IMG/VR virus record: IMGVR_UViG_2563366799_000003
Source: a virus
Taxonomy: Duplodnaviria > Heunggongvirae > Uroviricota > Caudoviricetes
Direction: 5' to 3' (one strand)
DNA: 30,441 nt
Shown here: positions 2,078 through 26,638 of the stretch, piece by piece
Position numbering within the stretch: position 1 is the first letter of the stretch
Layout: each line of letters opens with the position of its first letter
Notes under the pieces: generated by a model
The model's database searches: none
Told to the model about the DNA's origin: nothing
What the model saw: only the letters and a program-made list of their open reading frames with translations
Position numbers and translations under genes: made by a program

Positions 2078-3016
2078 ATGACGCAAATTAACCATGATGT
2101 TGTGCGCAGTGCCATTCGTGAACTTATCGACAGCAAGACGATTTCCGGTGCAGCGCTGGCGCGTGAGACCGGTACATCAACCGCGACGGTTTCACAGTTC
2201 CTGAACGGGAAATACAAAGGTGACAATGACACCGTAGCTGCCAGCCTGAATACCTGGCTTGAAAGTCACAACGCCGCGAAAACCACGCTTCCGGTGGCCC
2301 CTGATTTCGTTGAGACACCGACCTCTCAGAAAATCCTCGCCACCCTGACGTGGGCGCAGCTGGCCGGGACGATTGTGCTGGTTTACGGCAATCCGGGCGT
2401 GGGTAAGACAAAGGCTATCCGGCAGTATGCCGCAGGCGGTAATAACGTCTGGCACATCACCGCCAGCAAATCCCGCAGCAATGAGCTGGAGACCCTGTAT
2501 GAACTGGCCCTGAAAATGGGCATCAGCGATGCGCCATACCGCCGTGGTGCACTCTCTCGCCTGCTGCGCCAGCGTCTGCCGGACACGCGCGGCCTGATAG
2601 TGGTGGATGAAGCCGACTGGCTGAGTCTGGATGCGGTGGAAGAGCTGCGTATTCTCCAGGAGGAATGTGGCGTGGGGCTGGCACTGGTGGGTAACCACAA
2701 GGTCTATGACCGTCTTACCGGCGGCCAGCGCAGCGTGGATTTTGCCCGCCTGTTCTCCCGCGTGTCCAAGAAGTACGTCATCAATACCGTTTCCGCTGGT
2801 GACGTGGACAGCTTCTGCGATGCCTGGCAGGTCACCGGCGCTGACGAACGCAAGCTGCTGAAGGCTATCGCCCGACGTCCGGGGGCGCTGCGTTCTCTGT
2901 CGCACATCCTGCCGCTGGCCGGAATTTACGCTCAGGGCAAGGGTGAGACCATTGGCACGGCGCACATCCAGTCCGCCATGCTGGAGCTGGGCCACAGCGG
3001 TATCGGAGAGGAGTGA
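2078..3016 (+). CDS. B: Mu B-type transposition ATPase (AAA+ target DNA activator)
   Basis: 312 aa, directly downstream of A; Walker A GNPGVGKT and Walker B LIVVDEAD; N-terminal HTH-like segment; ATG at 2078 preceded by an AT-rich leader. Confidence 0.9.
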   Translation: MTQINHDVVRSAIRELIDSKTISGAALARETGTSTATVSQFLNGKYKGDNDTVAASLNTWLESHNAAKTTLPVAPDFVETPTSQKILATLTWAQLAGTIVLVYGNPGVGKTKAIRQYAAGGNNVWHITASKSRSNELETLYELALKMGISDAPYRRGALSRLLRQRLPDTRGLIVVDEADWLSLDAVEELRILQEECGVGLALVGNHKVYDRLTGGQRSVDFARLFSRVSKKYVINTVSAGDVDSFCDAWQVTGADERKLLKAIARRPGALRSLSHILPLAGIYAQGKGETIGTAHIQSAMLELGHSGIGEE

Positions 3017-3020
3017 CATC

Positions 3021-3260
3021 ATGATCGCCGAACGTATTGCAGAGCACATCAGCATGGCAGAAGCGGCGCAGAACTGGCTGCGTGCGCGTGGCAGTCGCGT
3101 GACTGACGTTCGGGTGTTTATGCGTCGCCCGCTGCTGGAGATTGCCTGCCCGCCGGTTGAGCTGCTTAACAGCGCAGAGCGCATTGCTGAATCACACAAC
3201 GGTGGCACCCGCTCCGTCTGGGTCGCCAGTCTGGAAGGTTGCCGGATTATCTGGAGGTAA
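3021..3260 (+). CDS. hypothetical early protein (79 aa)
   Basis: Internal ATG of ORF 2943..3260, 4 nt after the B stop, with GGAGAGGAG ribosome-binding site; occupies the Mu semi-essential early-region position. Confidence 0.5.
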   Translation: MIAERIAEHISMAEAAQNWLRARGSRVTDVRVFMRRPLLEIACPPVELLNSAERIAESHNGGTRSVWVASLEGCRIIWR

Positions 3261-3262
3261 GC

Positions 3263-3553
3263 ATGGGGTGGAGAACGGGTAAAACATGGTCCCCCGAAGA
3301 GCTTCGCATTCTTGAGCAGAGTGCAGGGAAAGTCAGTGTTATCGGGCTGGCTCAGCAACTGGGACGTACAAAACAGTCCGTTCAGAATTGCGCTCTTCGT
3401 CTTGGACTGTCACTGCGTATTCGTACAGAGGACGAGCATGATGCGTATTTATGCCGTGAGCTTTATAAGGAGGGGCTGACCGTTGCGATCATCGCAGAAA
3501 AAATGGAAATGTCCCGTCGTCAGGTTTTTAACATCGTTTATCGCGACAGCTAA
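3263..3553 (+). CDS. hypothetical early protein, possible small HTH DNA-binding protein (96 aa)
   Basis: ATG 2 nt after the upstream stop (ORF-track start 3239 is a TTG overlapping the upstream gene); contains HTH-like segments LAQQLGRTKQSVQNCALRLG and TVAIIAEKMEMSRRQVFNIVY. Confidence 0.5.
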   Translation: MGWRTGKTWSPEELRILEQSAGKVSVIGLAQQLGRTKQSVQNCALRLGLSLRIRTEDEHDAYLCRELYKEGLTVAIIAEKMEMSRRQVFNIVYRDS

Positions 3554-3567
3554 CTTAAAGGTTTTTT

Positions 3568-3843
3568 ATGACTGAGAAACAGCAATCAATATTAATCGCT
3601 TATGCGTGGGCCAGCGGGCTGATTGAATTTGGTCAGACACTCCCGGAAGGCGCTTTACCTATCGCGAGCGCCCGTCATCACAAGCGGCTCCGGGAGGTCA
3701 TAAATGTTTACGCACGCCACGGATATGCCCCTGGGCAGCTACTGGTTCCGGGGATTCCTGAAGCAGCCACCCAGAACGAAGCCGGAGTGGCTCTGACAAA
3801 GTTCTGTTTTTATGTTGAACGCGCATTACTGAATAAGGATTAA
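3568..3843 (+). CDS. hypothetical early protein (91 aa)
   Basis: ATG with AAAGG ribosome-binding site; tightly packed in the early operon; no recognisable family. Confidence 0.5.
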   Translation: MTEKQQSILIAYAWASGLIEFGQTLPEGALPIASARHHKRLREVINVYARHGYAPGQLLVPGIPEAATQNEAGVALTKFCFYVERALLNKD

Positions 3844-3847
3844 AACA

Positions 3848-4099
3848 ATGGCTAAACAGGTTATCACCATTGTCATTGAGGATGGCATCGTTCAGAAAAG
3901 TGACAAATCAATTAATAACGAACTACCTGAAGGGAAACTCAATATTCAGTTTCATCTTAATAACACAAATGATGATGGTTCATTTTCGTTTCTGGTTGCT
4001 GAAGGTCTGTCAGCTATTTTCCCGATGGCGATCCAGCAGGTCACCACGTTTGTGAAAGCAAGGGTGGAGCAGGATAACCGTAAAATAATCAAACACTGA
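3848..4099 (+). CDS. hypothetical early protein (83 aa), visibly AT-rich
   Basis: ATG with AAGGA ribosome-binding site 4 nt after the upstream stop; more AT-rich than flanking genes; immediately upstream of gam. Confidence 0.45.
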   Translation: MAKQVITIVIEDGIVQKSDKSINNELPEGKLNIQFHLNNTNDDGSFSFLVAEGLSAIFPMAIQQVTTFVKARVEQDNRKIIKH

Positions 4100-4106
4100 G
4101 GTTGAT

Positions 4107-4634
4107 ATGAAAGCACCTAAAAAACCACGAGCCAAGTCTGCTGCGGCAGTGGCCGTTCCGCAGTCACGTGAAGACGTGATTAACGATATCCGAAAAATTG
4201 GCGACATCACCCGTGTCATTTTGCGCCGTGAAACAGAACTGAATGACAAACTGGCCGAGCTGACTAACGACGCCGCTCCCGGAATTGAAGCGCTCAAGAA
4301 AGAGCTGGGCCGCTTACAAACTGGCGTCCAGACGTGGTGTGAAGCCAACCGTGCAGAGCTTACGAAAGACGGTAAGACCAAGACGGCCAACCTGACAACG
4401 GGCGAAGTTCGCTGGCGTAAGCGCCCGCCCAGCGTCACCATTCGCAAAGTTGAAGATGTTATTGCGTTACTCAAGAAATTCAGCCTGGGTAAATTTCTTC
4501 GCAATAAAGAGGAAATTAATAAAGAGGCAATTCTTGCATCACCGAATGAAGTTAAGGGAATTGCAGGGATATCCATTAAATCAGATGTTGAGGATTTTGA
4601 AATAATCCCATTTGAACAAACTGTAACTGATTAA
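4107..4634 (+). CDS. gam: host-nuclease inhibitor Gam (Mu Gam / Ku-like DNA-end-binding protein)
   Basis: 175 aa; strong similarity to Mu Gam as recalled (basic N-terminus, VPQSREDVINDIRKIGD, GVQTWCEANR, KTKTANLTTGEVRWRKRPPSV, EINKEAIL, IIPFEQ); GAGG ribosome-binding site. Confidence 0.9.
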   Translation: MKAPKKPRAKSAAAVAVPQSREDVINDIRKIGDITRVILRRETELNDKLAELTNDAAPGIEALKKELGRLQTGVQTWCEANRAELTKDGKTKTANLTTGEVRWRKRPPSVTIRKVEDVIALLKKFSLGKFLRNKEEINKEAILASPNEVKGIAGISIKSDVEDFEIIPFEQTVTD

Positions 4635-4723
4635 TTAACTTTCTTTGATTCTCAGAATTTTAATACGGTATGCCTGCCGGGGCTTCGTGCACCCGCAGGC
4701 AACTAAATATGGAGTTTAAGCGA

Positions 4724-5380
4724 ATGACCAGGCATACGATTATCAATATCCAGCAGATACGTGACGATATCTGCAAACGTAAAGCAATGCCGCCATTTGG
4801 CCCCGATACCAGTATTAATCGTCTTAAAACTATCAATGAGACCCAGCGCAGTTTCACTCTTGAAGTCGTGGAATTGTTGCTGGGTGAAATAGACGTCCTG
4901 TCAAAATCAGAATGGACACTGGCGGATGAACTGGTCAAGGCCCAAAAACGCATAGCTGAGCAGGAACGCACTAACACCGCCCAGGACGATCACATCAATC
5001 AGCAGGCAGACCGTATCGAATGCCTGGAAAAGAAAAACGACGATCTGGGCAAAGCTATTAGGGCCGCACTTCCATCGTTTTCACTGTCACCAGCAGCATC
5101 TGATGTTCTGGCCGAGCGCCAGCGGCAGATATCGGTTAAGGGGTACACTACACAGCAGGACGACACATATATTGAAGGTGAGCTGGCCGCAGCGGCTATA
5201 AGTTACATAGAGCCTTTGGCGGCTGAAGAATACTGGCCTGCTGACTGGCATGATGACAGTTTCAAACCGTCAGACTATCGTCGAAATTTAGTGAAAGCAT
5301 GTGCGCTTTTGATTGCAGAAATTGAGCGTATTGACCGCCAGTCGGAGGGAAATAACGATGAGTCGCGCATCCCTGATTAA
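4724..5380 (+). CDS. hypothetical early protein: coiled-coil N-terminal half plus acidic, Trp-containing C-terminal domain; tentatively Ea22-like with a nucleotide-pyrophosphohydrolase-like C-terminus
   Basis: ORF 4670..5380; ATG at 4724 preferred because it has a GGAG ribosome-binding site 9 nt upstream, whereas the 4670 ATG lies inside a hairpin; heptad-like segment VELLLGEIDVLSKSEWTLADELVKAQKRIAEQER. Family assignment is unverified recollection. Confidence 0.45.
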   Translation: MTRHTIINIQQIRDDICKRKAMPPFGPDTSINRLKTINETQRSFTLEVVELLLGEIDVLSKSEWTLADELVKAQKRIAEQERTNTAQDDHINQQADRIECLEKKNDDLGKAIRAALPSFSLSPAASDVLAERQRQISVKGYTTQQDDTYIEGELAAAAISYIEPLAAEEYWPADWHDDSFKPSDYRRNLVKACALLIAEIERIDRQSEGNNDESRIPD

Positions 5381-5885
5381 GTTAATCCATGTTGCCCGTC
5401 GCAATCTACAACTGGACGATGACACCTACCGCTCTGTACTGATGCGAGTGACGGGAAAGCAAAGCTGTCGTGACCTGAGAGTCGGCCAACTGGAGGATGT
5501 GCTGAAGGTACTGGAGGATAAGGGTTTCATTCGTACCCGTCCCCGTTCTCCGGCTCGCCGTCATCGTGAGACAGATATCACCGCAAAGGTCCGCAGCATC
5601 TGGCGGCAGATGCATCTTGATGGGTTTATCCGTGATGGCAGCGATACCTCACTCGATTCGTTCGTCGCGAAGATGACTGTCAGAACCAACAAAGGTAAAG
5701 GTATCGCCAGCCTGGCATGGTGCCGTGGCGATAATCTTCTGATGGTGCTGGAAAGCCTCAAGCAATGGCACCTGAGAGAAATGACAGAGGCGCTGAGTCC
5801 GCGAGACCTGGCATTTCAGGATAATCGGGGTTATGACGCCATCAACAGCCTGTATTCCAGTAAAGTAAGAAAGGTGCGCACATGA
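5358..5885 (+). CDS. gemA: GemA-like early regulatory protein (Mu gp16 family)
   Basis: ATG at 5358 with GAGGGA ribosome-binding site; N-terminus MSRASLIKLIHVARRNLQLDDDTYRSVL matches the gp16/GemA family pattern as recalled; position immediately upstream of mor as in Mu. Confidence 0.65.
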   Translation: MSRASLIKLIHVARRNLQLDDDTYRSVLMRVTGKQSCRDLRVGQLEDVLKVLEDKGFIRTRPRSPARRHRETDITAKVRSIWRQMHLDGFIRDGSDTSLDSFVAKMTVRTNKGKGIASLAWCRGDNLLMVLESLKQWHLREMTEALSPRDLAFQDNRGYDAINSLYSSKVRKVRT

Positions 5886-6289
5886 GCGAAAAGCAGAATG
5901 ACCTGTTTGGTGATATCCAGGATGACAGCATTCTGGAGCACCTGGACGATGACAGTTCGGCGGAAACTGTGCGTTTCCCTGCACTGCTGACAGAACTGAA
6001 TACGCTGTTGCGTGGCGAACTGACAAAGCATGGTGTTGACCCACGAATCTCTCTGGAGCTGGTCTATGCGATTAGCTGTCAGATTGGTGGAATGCAGATT
6101 TATTTTCCACGCGGCCAGACTCTTGAGTCATTGATTCGTGATATGAAAATCTGGCGTGATTTCAATGGCAGAAACATCACAGAGTTGGTTGAGCGTTACC
6201 GTGTTACCTATAAAACGGTGTATAAAGCAATCCGGAGAATGCGAAAGTTAGAGCAAGGTAAGAGGCAGCTCTCATTTAATATGGAGTGA
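5882..6289 (+). CDS. mor: Mor/C-family transcriptional activator (middle/late gene activator)
   Basis: 135 aa; acidic N-terminus DLFGDIQDDSILEHLDD, dimerisation region RFPALLTELNTLLRGEL, C-terminal HTH GRNITELVERYRVTYKTVYKAIRRMR; ATGA overlap with gemA stop. Only Mor/C-family member in the window. Confidence 0.85.
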   Translation: MSEKQNDLFGDIQDDSILEHLDDDSSAETVRFPALLTELNTLLRGELTKHGVDPRISLELVYAISCQIGGMQIYFPRGQTLESLIRDMKIWRDFNGRNITELVERYRVTYKTVYKAIRRMRKLEQGKRQLSFNME

Positions 6290-6293
6290 TAAT

Positions 6294-6617
6294 ATGGTTG
6301 GTGTGATTGTTATTAACATAGTTTGTATTATATGTGTTTTTTGGGTTTTCTTTGATGCTACTTCTAACAACATAGGAAGTTATGTTGTTAGAGACGGTGT
6401 GCGAAAAGGATGTCGCAGAGGCATACACCCTGTGGTTTGGGCTGCGCTGAGTATATTTATACTTCCTTTTATTTGGTATCTGATCAACAGGAAATCTTTA
6501 TTGATCGCTGCGGAAGAATATCCAGTAAAGACTGATAAAAGCGTAAGTTTTATTATTCTACTTTTGTTGGTATCAGGATGGTTGCTCTATCGCTACAAAG
6601 ATTATTTATTCTATTAA
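6294..6617 (+). CDS. small integral membrane protein (107 aa, three predicted TM helices), AT-rich moron; possibly PLD-nuclease-N-terminal-like fold
   Basis: ATG 4 nt after the mor stop with GGAG ribosome-binding site (translational coupling); three hydrophobic stretches (res 3-21, 47-63, 84-99); motif VVWAALSIFILPFIWYLINRK; markedly AT-rich codon usage unlike neighbours; followed by an intrinsic terminator. Confidence 0.55.
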   Translation: MVGVIVINIVCIICVFWVFFDATSNNIGSYVVRDGVRKGCRRGIHPVVWAALSIFILPFIWYLINRKSLLIAAEEYPVKTDKSVSFIILLLLVSGWLLYRYKDYLFY

Positions 6618-6633
6618 GTTATAGCCAATACAA

Positions 6634-6649
6634 TGAAGCCGGTTAATCC
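6634..6649 (+). promoter_or_regulatory. candidate late-promoter activator site (motif TGAAGCCGGTTAATCC) upstream of the endolysin gene
   Basis: Identical 16-mer recurs at 14608-14623 upstream of gene I; motif centre is 69 bp upstream of the lys ATG (6714). Confidence 0.4.
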
Positions 6650-6660
6650 GGCTTTTTTTT
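6636..6660 (+). terminator. rho-independent terminator ending the early/middle transcript
   Basis: Perfect 7-bp stem AAGCCGG / CCGGCTT (6636-6642, 6648-6654) with loop TTAAT, followed by a T8 run to 6660. Confidence 0.7.
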
Positions 6661-6713
6661 CGTCCGGCACATGATGGAAGGGAAATCTAACCCACTTCCA
6701 AAGGTGCCGTTTT

Positions 6714-7304
6714 ATGAACAACACCCCCGATTCTCCCGCATTTCGCAATGCTCTTGCTTTCGTGCTCAGCGCAGAACGCGGATATGTCAATGACCCCACT
6801 GACCGTGGCGGTGAAACTAACTTCGGTATATCAGATAAACGCGACGGTGTTGCCGATGGCATGACCGACGTTAATGGCGATGGCAAGCCTGATACTCGTA
6901 TTCGTGATTTAACGGTTGAACAGGCCGGACAGATTTACTTCCGTGACTACTGGTATCCGGCGTATTGCCAGTTATGGCCGGATGATATCGCCCTGTTTGT
7001 CTTTGATTCTGCCGTCCAGCATGGCGTCAAAAAGGCTGTCCAGTTGCTTCAGGAAGCTGTGGGTTTCACTGGCAAAAGCGTTGACGGTATCGCCGGTAAA
7101 AACACCCGTGCAGCCGTTGAGCGTGCTGACCCTGACTGGCTGCTGAACCGTTTGTTTCTGCAACGTTCCCGCTATTACGCCGACATCATCAAAGCAAACT
7201 CTTCGCAGGGCAAGTTCCTCAACGGCTGGTTTAACCGCCTTGACAACCTCGCTGACGCCTGTCGTGAGATTTCCGGTGTCCGCTATTCGGTAGCCCGGAG
7301 CTGA
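6714..7304 (+). CDS. endolysin, glycoside hydrolase family 108 N-domain with C-terminal peptidoglycan-binding domain
   Basis: 196 aa; GH108 signature SAERGYVNDPTDRGGETNFGI; C-terminal region RSRYYADIIKANSSQGKFLNGWFNRL resembles PG_binding_3; no N-terminal TM or signal anchor. Confidence 0.8.
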   Translation: MNNTPDSPAFRNALAFVLSAERGYVNDPTDRGGETNFGISDKRDGVADGMTDVNGDGKPDTRIRDLTVEQAGQIYFRDYWYPAYCQLWPDDIALFVFDSAVQHGVKKAVQLLQEAVGFTGKSVDGIAGKNTRAAVERADPDWLLNRLFLQRSRYYADIIKANSSQGKFLNGWFNRLDNLADACREISGVRYSVARS

Positions 7305-7305
7305 T

Positions 7306-7524
7306 ATGGGCAAGGGATGGGACGCTTCGCTGAAACAGGGACGACGTGACCGGCTGAGGCAGGAAGTTCTTCACCGAATAGCAGGTGGCCCCGTCCCCGT
7401 TCCGACAAGTTATGCAGGTCATGACGGTACACACGCCAGTTACTACATGCGCGGCTGGTCATCCGTCGATATCAGAGACATCGTCTGGCAATGCCAGCGA
7501 TACAAGGAAAAACACAATGTTTAA
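7306..7524 (+). CDS. hypothetical protein (72 aa), lysis region
   Basis: ATG 2 nt after the lys stop with GGAG-like ribosome-binding site; overlaps the next gene by 8 nt; preferred over the 7385..7924 long reading, whose N-terminal 44 aa are low-complexity. Confidence 0.35.
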   Translation: MGKGWDASLKQGRRDRLRQEVLHRIAGGPVPVPTSYAGHDGTHASYYMRGWSSVDIRDIVWQCQRYKEKHNV

Positions 7525-7924
7525 ATCGTTTAGCTGCGACTGGTTAAGGCTGGCACTGGTACAGGTTTTGCGCTCCGGATGGAGCATTGTCATTCTCGTC
7601 GGCCTGTCGCTGTTCATCTGTAGTTTCTCAGGCCGCCAGGCATTTATGGTCTGGTGGCTGGCACTCTCCGGCGTGGTTCTGATCGGATTCAGTATCTTTC
7701 TTGGCAATCTTCCGTACAGGCTTCTTAAACCTGAAATGCATATCAGCCGGCATGCCCGTTTCTGGGCGTGGGTCATCTGGGTTGTAGGCGGTTTTCTTCT
7801 CATTCTGAGCCAGCTATATGCCACCCCGTTATACCTGATTCTTCTTACACCAGTGGGTGCTGCAATCGGCGTTCTTTTCTGTATGTGGGTTGAACGTAAG
7901 GGGCTTCTTGCATGGATCCAGTAA
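7517..7924 (+). CDS. integral membrane protein with four predicted TM helices (holin candidate)
   Basis: Internal ATG of ORF 7385..7924 with AAGGA ribosome-binding site 8 nt upstream; hydrophobic stretches IVILVGLSLFICSF, MVWWLALSGVVLIGFSIFL, FWAWVIWVVGGFLLIL, LILLTPVGAAIGVLFCMW. Confidence 0.45.
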   Translation: MFKSFSCDWLRLALVQVLRSGWSIVILVGLSLFICSFSGRQAFMVWWLALSGVVLIGFSIFLGNLPYRLLKPEMHISRHARFWAWVIWVVGGFLLILSQLYATPLYLILLTPVGAAIGVLFCMWVERKGLLAWIQ

Positions 7925-8520
7925 CCATCTCTACCGTTGCCAGCGTTCTGATGAAGGCAGGACCGTCGTTACTGCGTACCGTGGGCGGCTGGTTCGGTGG
8001 CGACACCGCCAGAACGGCAGATTCTGTGGCGGGGATCGTTGAGAACGTCAACAGCGTCATCAACCCGCAGGACCAGCAGCGGGTGCTTGAGCAAAAACTG
8101 GCGGCGCTGCCGCCAGAACAGTTCGTCCAGCTCCAGTCCCTGAAGGTCCAGATTGAACAATTCCAGCTTGAGCGGGACAAAGCCGTACTGGCTGACCGTC
8201 AGGCTGCCCACCATGAACAGCAGGAAACCATCCGTAACGGGGACAACGCCACGGATGAATATGTCCGTCAGACCAGACCGCTGATGGCCCGGCTGTCGCT
8301 ATACAGCAGCATTGCGTATGTGATGCTGATGTCTGTGGGTCAGCAGGCTGGCGCGGTATCCGGTGCTTTTGGTCATGCCTTCTCCATGCCATCACCGGAC
8401 TGGGATATCGCACTCATGCTGGCGACACCGGCGCTTGGGTATCTTGGTTTTCGTACCCTTGACGGGTTCGCCCGGTACAGCAAATCCAGCAAACACAAAA
8501 CGATGGCGGCGGGTAGATGA
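7912..8520 (+). CDS. hypothetical lysis-region protein with hydrophobic C-terminal segments (possible holin-like or spanin-like component)
   Basis: 202 aa; soluble coiled-coil-prone middle (QQRVLEQKLAALPPEQFVQLQSLKVQIEQFQLERDK); C-terminal hydrophobic stretches LYSSIAYVMLMSVG and IALMLATPALGYLGF; 13-nt overlap with upstream gene. Confidence 0.4.
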   Translation: MDPVTISTVASVLMKAGPSLLRTVGGWFGGDTARTADSVAGIVENVNSVINPQDQQRVLEQKLAALPPEQFVQLQSLKVQIEQFQLERDKAVLADRQAAHHEQQETIRNGDNATDEYVRQTRPLMARLSLYSSIAYVMLMSVGQQAGAVSGAFGHAFSMPSPDWDIALMLATPALGYLGFRTLDGFARYSKSSKHKTMAAGR

Positions 8521-8723: not shown

Positions 8724-9029
8724 ATGGAATGGGAAACCGTAAGAAGTAACTGGGCTGTCATCTGGGCCGGACTGATGTCCGGTATCAATATTATCCACCT
8801 GCTGCTGGTGAAAACCTATGCCCGCCGGGAAGAGATGGAGAAAGTTAACAGCCGGATGAGTGCACTTGAAAAGGCCATCGACGGGATGCCGTCACGGCAG
8901 GAACTCCACCAGTTGCAACTGGATATGAGCAACCTGCGCGGCGAAATACGGGAGTTCTCCGGAATGCTCCGGCAGGCCACACGTATCAGCGATCTGTTGC
9001 TGGAAAACGAACTGAAGGAAAAAAATTAA
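8724..9029 (+). CDS. membrane-anchored coiled-coil protein (Mu-like DUF2730-type; possible inner-membrane spanin)
   Basis: 101 aa; N-terminal TM WAVIWAGLMSGINIIHLLLV followed by a coiled-coil-prone periplasmic region; ATG immediately after upstream TAA. Confidence 0.5.
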   Translation: MEWETVRSNWAVIWAGLMSGINIIHLLLVKTYARREEMEKVNSRMSALEKAIDGMPSRQELHQLQLDMSNLRGEIREFSGMLRQATRISDLLLENELKEKN

Positions 9030-9035
9030 GAGGCT

Positions 9036-9329
9036 ATGAGCATGCAAGAAATCCTCAACAGCGACCAGCGTCTGGTCATTCTGCGCTCACTGGTGGAGTG
9101 CGGAGACAGTGCAAACGAATCCATTCTACAGACCTGCCTCCAGACCTACGGCCACCGGGTTTCCCGTGACACCGTCCGCACCCTCCTTGCGTGGCTACGT
9201 GAACAGGGACTCGTCACCCTGTCAGATGTCTCCGGGTGTTACGTCGCCGGCATCACAGGACGCGGTGAAGATGTGGCCTTTGGGCTGGCGACGGTCCCCG
9301 GCGTCAAAAAACCACGTGCGCGGGAGTGA
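9036..9329 (+). CDS. hypothetical protein (97 aa), possibly winged-helix-like
   Basis: ATG with AGAGG ribosome-binding site; segment LVILRSLVECGDSANESILQTCLQTYGHRVSRDTVRTLLAWLREQGLV resembles a wHTH; no family assigned. Confidence 0.5.
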   Translation: MSMQEILNSDQRLVILRSLVECGDSANESILQTCLQTYGHRVSRDTVRTLLAWLREQGLVTLSDVSGCYVAGITGRGEDVAFGLATVPGVKKPRARE

Positions 9330-25656: not shown

Positions 25657-26189
25657 ATCCGGCAAATATCGGTCGCACACTTGAAGGTATTGGACGCCGG
25701 CTGCGATTGCTCGTTGACAGGGCCGTTGTTCGTATCGTTACAGACAGTCTCGGGCGTCAGAACCTCCAGATCCAGTCTCTGGCGGATTCCACCAATGATG
25801 ATGTTGAACGTTTCCAGAACTACGGCCTGACGTCTGTGCCGCCAGTCGGTTCAGAAGCACTCATTCTGGCAGTGGGGGGACGCCGGGAAGGTCTGGTGGC
25901 AATCGCTGTTGAAGACAAGCGCTGTCGTCCAAAAGGTCTGGAGGATGGAGAGGTCAGGTTATATCACGGCGATGGTCAGTCTTATATCACCCTGAAAAAA
26001 GGTGGTCTTATCGACGTTAAAGGGAAATCGGTTAATTACGATGCCGGCGAATTGTTTGCGATAAATACAAAATTATTAAAAGTTAACGGCCCATCTGTAT
26101 TTTCAAATGATATTCAGGTCGCCGGTAAATCTGTTCTTGAGCATTTCCATATGGACGGGGATGGCAAAAAAACATCGGAGATGAAATGA
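25647..26189 (+). CDS. baseplate spike / assembly protein V (Mu gp45-like)
   Basis: 180 aa; ACGGAGG ribosome-binding site; size and order as gpV-type spike. Confidence 0.75.
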   Translation: MGLNPANIGRTLEGIGRRLRLLVDRAVVRIVTDSLGRQNLQIQSLADSTNDDVERFQNYGLTSVPPVGSEALILAVGGRREGLVAIAVEDKRCRPKGLEDGEVRLYHGDGQSYITLKKGGLIDVKGKSVNYDAGELFAINTKLLKVNGPSVFSNDIQVAGKSVLEHFHMDGDGKKTSEMK

Positions 26190-26638
26190 CTATTGGTATC
26201 AGCTGGAATAATCAACTCTCCAGAGGTGAACTGACAATTAACCATGATGGTTTATCGCGTGATGAAGGACTGGTCACTTTGGTTCTGATTTGTCTTTTCA
26301 CCGACGTCCGTGCTGATACTGATGACATTATTCCTGATAACTCATCGGACCCGAGAGGCTGGCCCGGCGACACATTTAGTGATTATCCGTGGGGATCGAA
26401 ACTCTGGTTGCTGGATCGCGAGAAGCTGACGGAATCCGTCAGAATGCGGGTGGAAGATTATGCACTGCTTTCTATGCAACCGCTTTTACGTTCTGGTTAT
26501 GCGCGTAATGCAGCAGTCACAGCCACTATAAGCGGCAATGACCGAATTAATTTTATTGTCATTCTAACCCGCCCGGATAAAACGACGCTCCGGATTGAAA
26601 TAAGTAAACGCTGGGAGTCCACTGCTAATGCCTTATAA
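26186..26638 (+). CDS. baseplate protein (Mu gp46 / gpW-like)
   Basis: 150 aa; ATGA overlap; position between gpV-like and baseplate J-like genes. Confidence 0.7.
   Translation: MTIGISWNNQLSRGELTINHDGLSRDEGLVTLVLICLFTDVRADTDDIIPDNSSDPRGWPGDTFSDYPWGSKLWLLDREKLTESVRMRVEDYALLSMQPLLRSGYARNAAVTATISGNDRINFIVILTRPDKTTLRIEISKRWESTANAL

Follow-up and report, generated by a model that had tools for sequence, protein, structure and literature searches.

The 30,441-nt stretch of DNA analysed here (IMG/VR record IMGVR_UViG_2563366799_000003; hereafter the window) belongs to a Mu-like tailed phage and carries, between the activator gene mor and an endolysin gene, a short AT-rich reading frame for a small membrane protein. 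An initial annotation had taken this frame for a moron of classic architecture. The locus raises the question whether the frame is (i) a foreign unit that is expressed autonomously from the prophage or (ii) a component of the early operon of the phage, and which task a membrane protein could have at this position. Comparison with related phages shows that the gene is an uncharacterised example of a familiar feature, the variable accessory slot of a temperate phage.

An AT-rich gene under purifying selection

The reading frame at 6294-6617 on the + strand starts with ATG and encodes 107 residues (MVGVIVINIVCIICVFWVFFDATSNN...RYKDYLFY). Its GC content is 35.2%, compared to a window mean of 53.1% (sd 4.6); just 0.09% of all 324-nt windows are as GC-poor, and the minimum at this window size (start 6306) falls inside the frame. 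The atypical composition reported initially is thus confirmed. The adjoining genes, described as GC-rich, are so by comparison; in absolute terms they range at ~47-53% GC. GC by codon position is 0.41/0.33/0.32 in the frame vs 0.54/0.35/0.52 in mor and 0.60/0.44/0.55 in the endolysin gene. Recoding of the protein with the codon usage of the phage yields an expected GC content of 46%, so that amino-acid content accounts for part of the AT bias and codon choice for the remainder.

In comparisons of the frame to 18 distinct homologues, synonymous divergence has reached saturation (pS 0.65-0.84), pN amounts to 0.21-0.39, and dN/dS, where calculable, lies between 0.05 and 0.28. The frame is a genuine protein-coding gene under purifying selection. 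A non-coding or spurious frame at this position is ruled out by this selection together with the deep conservation of the gene. All features of the locus are compiled in Table 1.

Table 1 Features of the locus and of the encoded 107-aa protein, in window coordinates
Feature	Position	Strand	Basis or remark
mor, Mor/C-family transcription activator, only one in the window	5882-6289	+	PF08765, E 1.8e-30
Exchanged cassette: 3' tail of mor and whole ORF	6230-6617	+	ECONIH5, VREC0864 alignment
GGAG Shine-Dalgarno in the last two sense codons of mor (ATG GAG TGA), 7 nt before ATG	6283-6286	+	Read directly
Gene under study; predicted three-helix inner-membrane protein, ~12 kDa	6294-6617	+	WP_016239619.1; phrog_36430
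TM helix 1 (aa 2-24), ending in invariant D21-A22; conserved I27-G28 next, in loop	6297-6365	+	AF2, 44-sequence alignment
Loop 1 (aa 25-45), basic, short beta-hairpin (30-31 / 41-42)	6366-6428	+	AF2
TM helix 2 (aa 46-64), kink at P58, W49, invariant Y62	6429-6485	+	AF2, alignment
Amphipathic helix (aa 66-75): invariant R66, near-invariant L69, A73	6489-6518	+	AF2, alignment
TM helix 3 (aa 82-100), then short tail RYKDYLFY	6537-6593	+	Hydrophobicity, AF2
Backbone hairpin GAAGCCGGTTAATCCGGCTTT and T-run	6635-6660	+	Same sequence at Mu 9179-9200
Putative Mor-dependent (Pm-like) promoter core and endolysin-operon leader	6661-6713	+	Position relative to dyad matches Mu Pm
GH108 endolysin with PG_binding_3, first gene past the slot	6714-7304	+	PF05838 8.9e-22, PF09374 7.9e-16

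The last cistron of a Mu-type early operon

The MuA-like and MuB-like genes, gam, gemA and mor are all located upstream of 6294 on the same strand, with the GemA-encoding gene preceding mor and the GH108/PG_binding_3 endolysin gene following the frame. No convincing terminator was found in the early operon before 6635. The gene is the last cistron of a Mu-type early operon, and it has the strand, the place in the gene order and the position upstream of a t9.2-type hairpin that go with membership. The order gemA-mor is the same in Mu, whose Mor is 63% identical to that of the window phage; when Mu C is compared to the window, mor is the sole match (35%), and a separate C activator is not present in the window.

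A start codon 4 nt past the mor stop and coupling to mor had been proposed initially, and both are borne out: the TGA of mor occupies 6287-6289, the ATG follows at 6294, and a GGAG sequence is embedded in the last codons of mor (Table 1). In most distinct related loci that carry a homologous gene, mor terminates in '...ME*' (ATGGAGTGA/TAA), with an ATG 3-9 nt past the stop. As this Mor ending encodes the GGAG ribosome-binding site, translational linkage to mor is supported. We further scanned the + strand between 5282 and 6700 for sigma-70-like sites and found none with this consensus scan, which may miss a weak or unusual promoter.

Downstream of the gene, a hairpin at 6635-6655 begins 17 nt past the stop codon and is followed by 8 T. 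Folding of nucleotides 6618-6670 yields -16.4 kcal/mol (z -3.6), and 0 of 200 shuffled sequences are as stable. The hairpin AAGCCGGTTAATCCGGCTTTTTTT is common to the window phage and Mu, directly downstream of the end of the early operon. In Mu (AF083977), mor ends at 9170 and the hairpin at 9179-9200 is located inside the annotated Mor-activated middle promoter (9163-9233; L118 2164-2234); AAAGCCGGTTAATCCGGCTTTTTTTACGTCC of Mu and window 6634-6664 are essentially the same sequence. With 8 nt from the mor stop to the hairpin, the slot of Mu is empty, whereas the window phage carries the three-transmembrane (3-TM) gene there. On Mu Pm, the dimer of Mor occupies a dyad at -51 to -36 with its centre at -43.5 (PMC4287176, PMC4390567), and by its coordinates this dyad would coincide with the hairpin stem.

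A hairpin mostly of the type (C)AATGAAGCCGG(T/A)TAATCCGGC-T7-9 is found in 91 of the 104 loci scanned, irrespective of the slot content and also when the slot is empty. Since the hairpin is kept whatever separates it from mor, it represents a backbone element that was not brought by the gene. By homology, we consider it to be the intrinsic terminator of the early transcript and a putative Mor operator. The initial description of a gene placed just before the operon terminator therefore holds for the position, but this terminator belongs to the phage backbone and is part of the Pm region in Mu. The Pm-like region of the window phage contains a GCAC-N3-4-ATGR motif common to its relatives.

Whereas Mu employs a three-tier cascade with a separate C, the window phage lacks C and has the Pm-like region directly before the endolysin gene. 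The endolysin gene is followed by a 72-aa ORF (window 7306-7524) with 67% identity to Mu gp18, the first gene of the Mu middle operon. These three properties together point to an apparent two-tier cascade, early and then Mor-dependent, in which the Pm-like region appears to drive the endolysin operon. Three further genes lie downstream of the endolysin gene: a multi-TM protein gene at 7385-7924 (phrog_12596), a gene at 7912-8520 for a 202-aa protein with weak matches to GTA_holin_3TM and to a holin PHROG, and a DUF2730 gene (Mu releasin family) at 8724-9029. All three are likelier candidates for lysis control than the 3-TM gene.

Four states of one slot

The locus recurs without change in three strains among the complete E. 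coli genomes. In ECONIH5 and VREC0864, flanks with 95-96% identity surround an unrelated 169-aa gene in place of the 3-TM gene. Identity to these two genomes is lost at ~6229, ~60 nt before the mor stop, and is regained at 6618, the base immediately after the stop of the frame, so that the last ~20 codons of mor (from ~6230) are contained in the exchanged segment.

To avoid selection bias, we surveyed loci picked by Mor similarity (60-100%) and not by the slot gene: 79 loci from IMG/VR and 12 from GTDB genomes (Klebsiella, Raoultella, Kluyvera, Pluralibacter, Serratia, Brenneria, Trabulsiella), some of which duplicate one another. The GTDB loci were found with a Mor alignment, after a single Mor query had found none. 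The interval from mor to the endolysin gene was resolved in 87 loci. Type A, the 3-TM protein of 103-111 aa, occupies 27 of these (19 distinct). In 33 loci (27 distinct), the slot contains type B, a protein of 159-177 aa with an N-terminal signal or anchor and two conserved Cys (phrog_38744; for example L002 3997-4506), and 14 loci (13 distinct) contain type C, a protein of 165-178 aa with a cleavable-looking signal peptide and two conserved Cys (phrog_28288; for example L030 2921-3439). The slot is empty in 12 loci, with a spacing of 82-86 nt between mor and the endolysin gene, and degenerate in one (L098; 1 distinct), which has no ORF of useful length.

Loci with 95-100% Mor identity show a mixture of these slot types, and so do loci at ~70%. 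The B and C proteins are unrelated to the 3-TM protein, match no Pfam family and only the unannotated PHROGs 38744 and 28288, and their genes are as AT-rich as the 3-TM gene: GC3 amounts to 0.345/0.346/0.353 in A/B/C cassettes vs 0.50-0.53 in mor and 0.57-0.60 in the endolysin gene. Since all alternative occupants carry an N-terminal signal peptide or anchor, they are predicted to be sent to the envelope as well. Because the slot is empty in Mu and 12 relatives, the slot gene is dispensable. The C-terminal tail of Mor co-varies with the cassette type, with most type A loci ending in ...KRQ(Y/L)S(L/F)(D/N)ME*, while types B, C and empty slots have tails of the form ...RK(H/Y)Q.(D/P)LF.... This co-variation shows that cassettes are exchanged through recombination, within limits set by the conserved mor body and the hairpin.

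The accessory status of the gene, suggested initially, is thus confirmed in related Mu-like prophages by its replacement beside nearly identical flanks and by the empty slots. Universal conservation at this position with uniform composition across relatives was looked for and is not the case.

An old companion of mor

In Klebsiella-type phages, type A homologues are 44-64% identical to the window protein, and the same loci show identities of 65-72% for Mor, 68-73% for the endolysin and 39-47% for GemA. A more distant Mu-like group (Mor ~30%, GemA ~40%) carries a homologue of 102-105 aa with ~42% identity immediately upstream of mor; this 3-TM gene is likewise AT-rich and abuts its neighbours. 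The co-divergence with Mor, endolysin and GemA of homologues in the same slot characterises the 3-TM gene as an old companion of mor, repeatedly lost or replaced, and not as a recent import. Low GC3 despite saturated synonymous sites indicates that the AT bias is maintained. Either the AT bias of the cassettes is kept by selection, or the cassettes move within a common AT-rich pool.

The comparison to lambdoid morons (in the Hendrix/Juhala sense) is instructive. As for these, we find an extra gene that some phages have and close relatives lack at the corresponding position, with an atypical composition (35% vs 53% GC; GC3 0.32 vs 0.52-0.55 in neighbours). Unlike these, the 3-TM gene has neither a detected promoter nor a terminator of its own, is linked to the early operon and has co-diverged with the phage. 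The consensus scan of the + strand (5282-6700) yielded no promoter, and the hairpin is common to A, B, C and empty loci and to Mu. Absence of a promoter-like site before the gene combined with a backbone terminator gives no sign of an autonomous, prophage-expressed unit, and the label of a classic moron architecture is not supported.

A three-helix module shared with cellular proteins

The 107-aa protein contains three hydrophobic segments (aa 2-20, 46-64, 83-99), and AlphaFold predicts helices at 2-24, 46-64, 66-75 and 82-100, in agreement with the initial assignment of a three-TM membrane protein. AlphaFold2 reaches a pLDDT of 51.6 with 9 close homologues only and of 92.8 (pTM 0.81) with 44 diverse homologues; this increase implies a defined, co-evolving fold. 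A structural search with the model against PDB and BFVD found no neighbour.

We performed an HMM search of 1.84 billion cluster representatives and obtained 63 relatives at E <= 1e-3. Over 44 homologues, no variation is seen at D21, G28, Y62, R66 and P77 and hardly any at A22, I27, L69 and A73, resulting in the signature W-x-x-x-D-A-x4-I-G ... W ... P-x3-Y-L-x2-R-x2-L-x3-A-x3-P. Loop 1 is strongly conserved across the phage subfamily (IGSYVV..G..KG.R.G.HP), and P77, located after the amphipathic helix, is followed by the phage-subfamily motif TDKS. Many relatives are 170-445 aa long and carry the ~95-residue 3-TM module at the N-terminus with varied domains after it; partners include a ~85-residue domain with a conserved Cys pair, DUF4352 and, once, a preceding zinc ribbon. 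By profile similarity, the 107-aa protein is a member of an unannotated 3-TM module that is also present in cellular proteins.

Distant homologues are found in ordinary chromosomal contexts, e.g. between yggT and a yggU-like gene. The neighbourhoods of six of them are heterogeneous, and no common neighbour gene was found around these six. The chromosomal contexts and the assorted C-terminal fusions suggest a generic membrane activity that is not specific to phages. Throughout the family, K+R counts show next to no bias across the membrane (~0; mean -0.3 in phage copies, +0.2 in distant homologues), so that the positive-inside rule yields no orientation. Two homologues, P0019 (187 aa) and P0020 (416 aa), contain the module twice in tandem, head-to-tail; with an odd number of helices per copy, all of them spanning, the two halves would be oppositely oriented. 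The near-zero bias and the tandem homologues are hints of dual topology of the module.

In database scans, the protein matches phrog_36430 over its full length (E 1e-71, 1-107 of 107), and 44 of the 44 members of the extended alignment match it too. This PHROG carries no functional annotation, and membership provides a label only. Pfam, NCBIfam and PADLOC, including their known exclusion and defence families and the Pfam superinfection-immunity family, gave no match to the 107-aa protein, and phrog_36430 is its sole PHROG. Scans of the 44 family members against Pfam and PHROG yielded nothing beyond this unannotated PHROG and chance TM-family matches.

The initial annotation had noted a resemblance to PLDc_N (PF13396) and had suggested profile searches for PLDc_N and for holin and Sie families; none of these families is matched. 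The likeness to PLDc_N is superficial and comprises an acidic residue ending TM1 and, in TM2, a W...P...Y pattern with basic residues after it. PF13396 does not hit the window protein even at E <= 10; among the 44 homologues it hits one, at E 0.036, below the cut-off and among chance TM-family hits. PLDc_N forms a two-TM hairpin with a short loop and often precedes PLD domains, whereas the 3-TM protein has three helices and a structured loop of 25 residues, and no PLDc domain was found in the ten longer fused homologues scanned. A PLDc_N identity is rejected on the HMM scans and the three-helix architecture.

A proposed role in the envelope and competing explanations

We are highly confident of the anatomy and of the predicted expression timing, the latter deduced from homology to Mu and from the consensus promoter scan. 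The protein would accompany Mor as a product of the repressor-controlled early promoter within the first minutes of infection or induction, and would not be made in the lysogen. It would insert into the inner membrane and perform a dispensable, interchangeable task in the envelope during lytic growth. Such an accessory envelope function is favoured because all alternative occupants of the slot are exported and the slot can be empty.

In temperate phages, genes for exclusion, defence and counter-defence tend to accumulate in variable accessory slots. The task could be to shield a cell that is already infected against additional phages, through a block to DNA entry or another change of the envelope, and the periplasmic cassettes of sister phages may be other routes to the same end. 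Phage T4 possesses small early superinfection-exclusion proteins in the inner membrane (Imm, with two TM helices) and in the periplasm (Sp). This pair mirrors the membrane and secreted alternatives of the slot, as a functional analogy only. We tentatively propose superinfection exclusion in parallel to T4 Imm/Sp, a possible rather than a probable role for the 3-TM protein. Against it count the lack of similarity to exclusion, defence, holin and PLDc_N families and of a neighbour in PDB or BFVD, as well as the generic membrane activity suggested by the contexts and fusions of the distant homologues; moreover, co-divergence with the phage fits any useful early function equally well.

One such function would be that of a host-takeover effector that attaches to an envelope machine of the host (divisome, peptidoglycan or lipid-carrier enzymes, a transporter or an ion pathway) and favours transpositional replication but excludes no phages. 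Expression with the early genes, as predicted here, is also that of the semi-essential accessory genes of Mu, and D21, Y62 and R66 are invariant at both membrane faces from phage to cellular proteins, which suggests a conserved ligand or partner; one cellular homologue adjoins yggT. We nevertheless regard this explanation as rather unlikely, since a single shared target is hard to picture for interchangeable occupants that are unrelated secreted proteins, and the cellular homologues have no conserved gene neighbour. Phage counter-defence loci are typically early, AT-rich and allelically diverse at one slot. These properties would suit an anti-defence factor that neutralises a membrane-associated abortive-infection effector or sensor of the host early in infection, and one distant homologue is located near UvrD-, WCX- and AAA-type genes. 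However, homology to known anti-defence proteins is lacking, the neighbourhoods are mixed, and a reason for its substitution by periplasmic proteins is hard to see, which makes this explanation very improbable. Similarly small is the chance we assign to the 3-TM module being an unrecognised, widespread though rare domain that acts as an antiparallel (dual-topology) dimer with a small channel or a lipid or ligand site and, when made early, blocks incoming phage DNA via altered permeability or energisation of the inner membrane; it derives from hints, namely the near-zero K+R bias, the tandem 3TM+3TM fusions and the confident fold without structural neighbour.

A function in lysis timing, as a class-I-like holin, antiholin or lysis inhibitor working with the adjacent endolysin, is suggested by size and position. 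With 107 aa and three TM helices, the protein has the size (~100 aa) and shape of a class I holin; lambda S is comparable in both respects. The gene is located directly upstream of the endolysin gene, and the endolysin has no signal or SAR sequence and thus needs a holin. Yet a strong terminator and an activator-dependent promoter intervene before the endolysin gene, so that the protein would be made early and apart from the lysis genes, outside a late cassette. The C-terminal tail of 8 residues (RYKDYLFY) is not highly charged, no Pfam or PHROG holin profile matches, and the slot otherwise contains secreted soluble proteins or nothing. The separation by terminator and promoter, the lack of a highly charged tail and the replacement by secreted proteins make a holin unlikely, and better candidates are available at 7385-7924 and 7912-8520. 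In Mu, gp19 and gp20 are likewise small non-essential membrane proteins encoded between mor and lys, and they are dispensable for lysis (PMC9239132). They differ from the 3-TM protein in being middle gene products with 4 TM and 1 TM, encoded downstream of Pm, whereas the 3-TM gene is early and upstream; no sequence similarity between them and the 3-TM protein was detected. We therefore consider lysis timing improbable. Equally little weight is given to a true lysogenic-conversion moron with a hidden promoter in the cassette or in mor, which would be expressed from the prophage and confer exclusion, abortive infection or another fitness trait. The gene is AT-rich, swappable and flanked by a terminator, and the distant homologue P0037 is located on the repressor side of a possible other prophage. 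On the other hand, the + strand scan (5282-6700) revealed no sigma-70-like site, the terminator is a backbone element, and the start codon always lies within ~9 nt of the mor stop, with its Shine-Dalgarno sequence inside mor, an arrangement that speaks for dependence on early transcription. L025 and L027, two prophages whose copies of the gene are nearly identical, also share one genome.

The slot is unusually well defined, as it extends from the mor stop to a hairpin that hardly varies among the relatives surveyed. Its four states are scattered over nearly identical phages from E. coli, Klebsiella, Raoultella, Serratia, Brenneria and others and represent a natural allelic series in a genetically tractable Mu-type system. 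A membrane-protein family without database description thereby gains a confident structural model and a phage context. Should the exclusion proposal hold, transposable phages would have their first described early exclusion module of the Imm/Sp kind; otherwise, the gene still provides a handle on an uncharacterised bacterial membrane domain.

Additional observations

A near-identity DNA search of phage GenBank records yielded no match to the locus, a protein search of phage records matched the 107-aa protein in one unannotated Klebsiella phage, and literature searches found no paper on the gene or its slot. The sole Rfam result between 5800 and 6800 is a sub-threshold match to the sroD sRNA (window 6588-6660; 29.1 bits at a gathering score of 50, E 0.002) that extends over the end of the frame and the terminator hairpin. 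Probably the terminator sequence produced this match by chance.

In Raoultella sp. BIGb0138, the related Mu-like prophages L101 and L104 occur together with cassettes A and B, and the prophages L025 and L027 of IMG genome 2924896205 carry near-identical type A copies. Empty-slot relatives (L072-L075, L078-L082, L086, L088 and L089; ~2840-3025) have a Mor with a Pro/Arg-rich C-terminal extension of ~17 residues (...YHSPNLPHPVRRPPRRP) that reaches the hairpin. In L119-L123 (~3460-4750), the 3-TM homologue follows a ~170-aa zinc-finger-like protein starting MRIGRCPVCHSDFHLDA, which is absent from the window phage. Other patches with GC contents of <=40% are found in the window at 3783-4139 and 4418-4843, in the early accessory region around gam, and at 25970-26342 in the tail/baseplate region; they may represent other accessory or exchanged segments.
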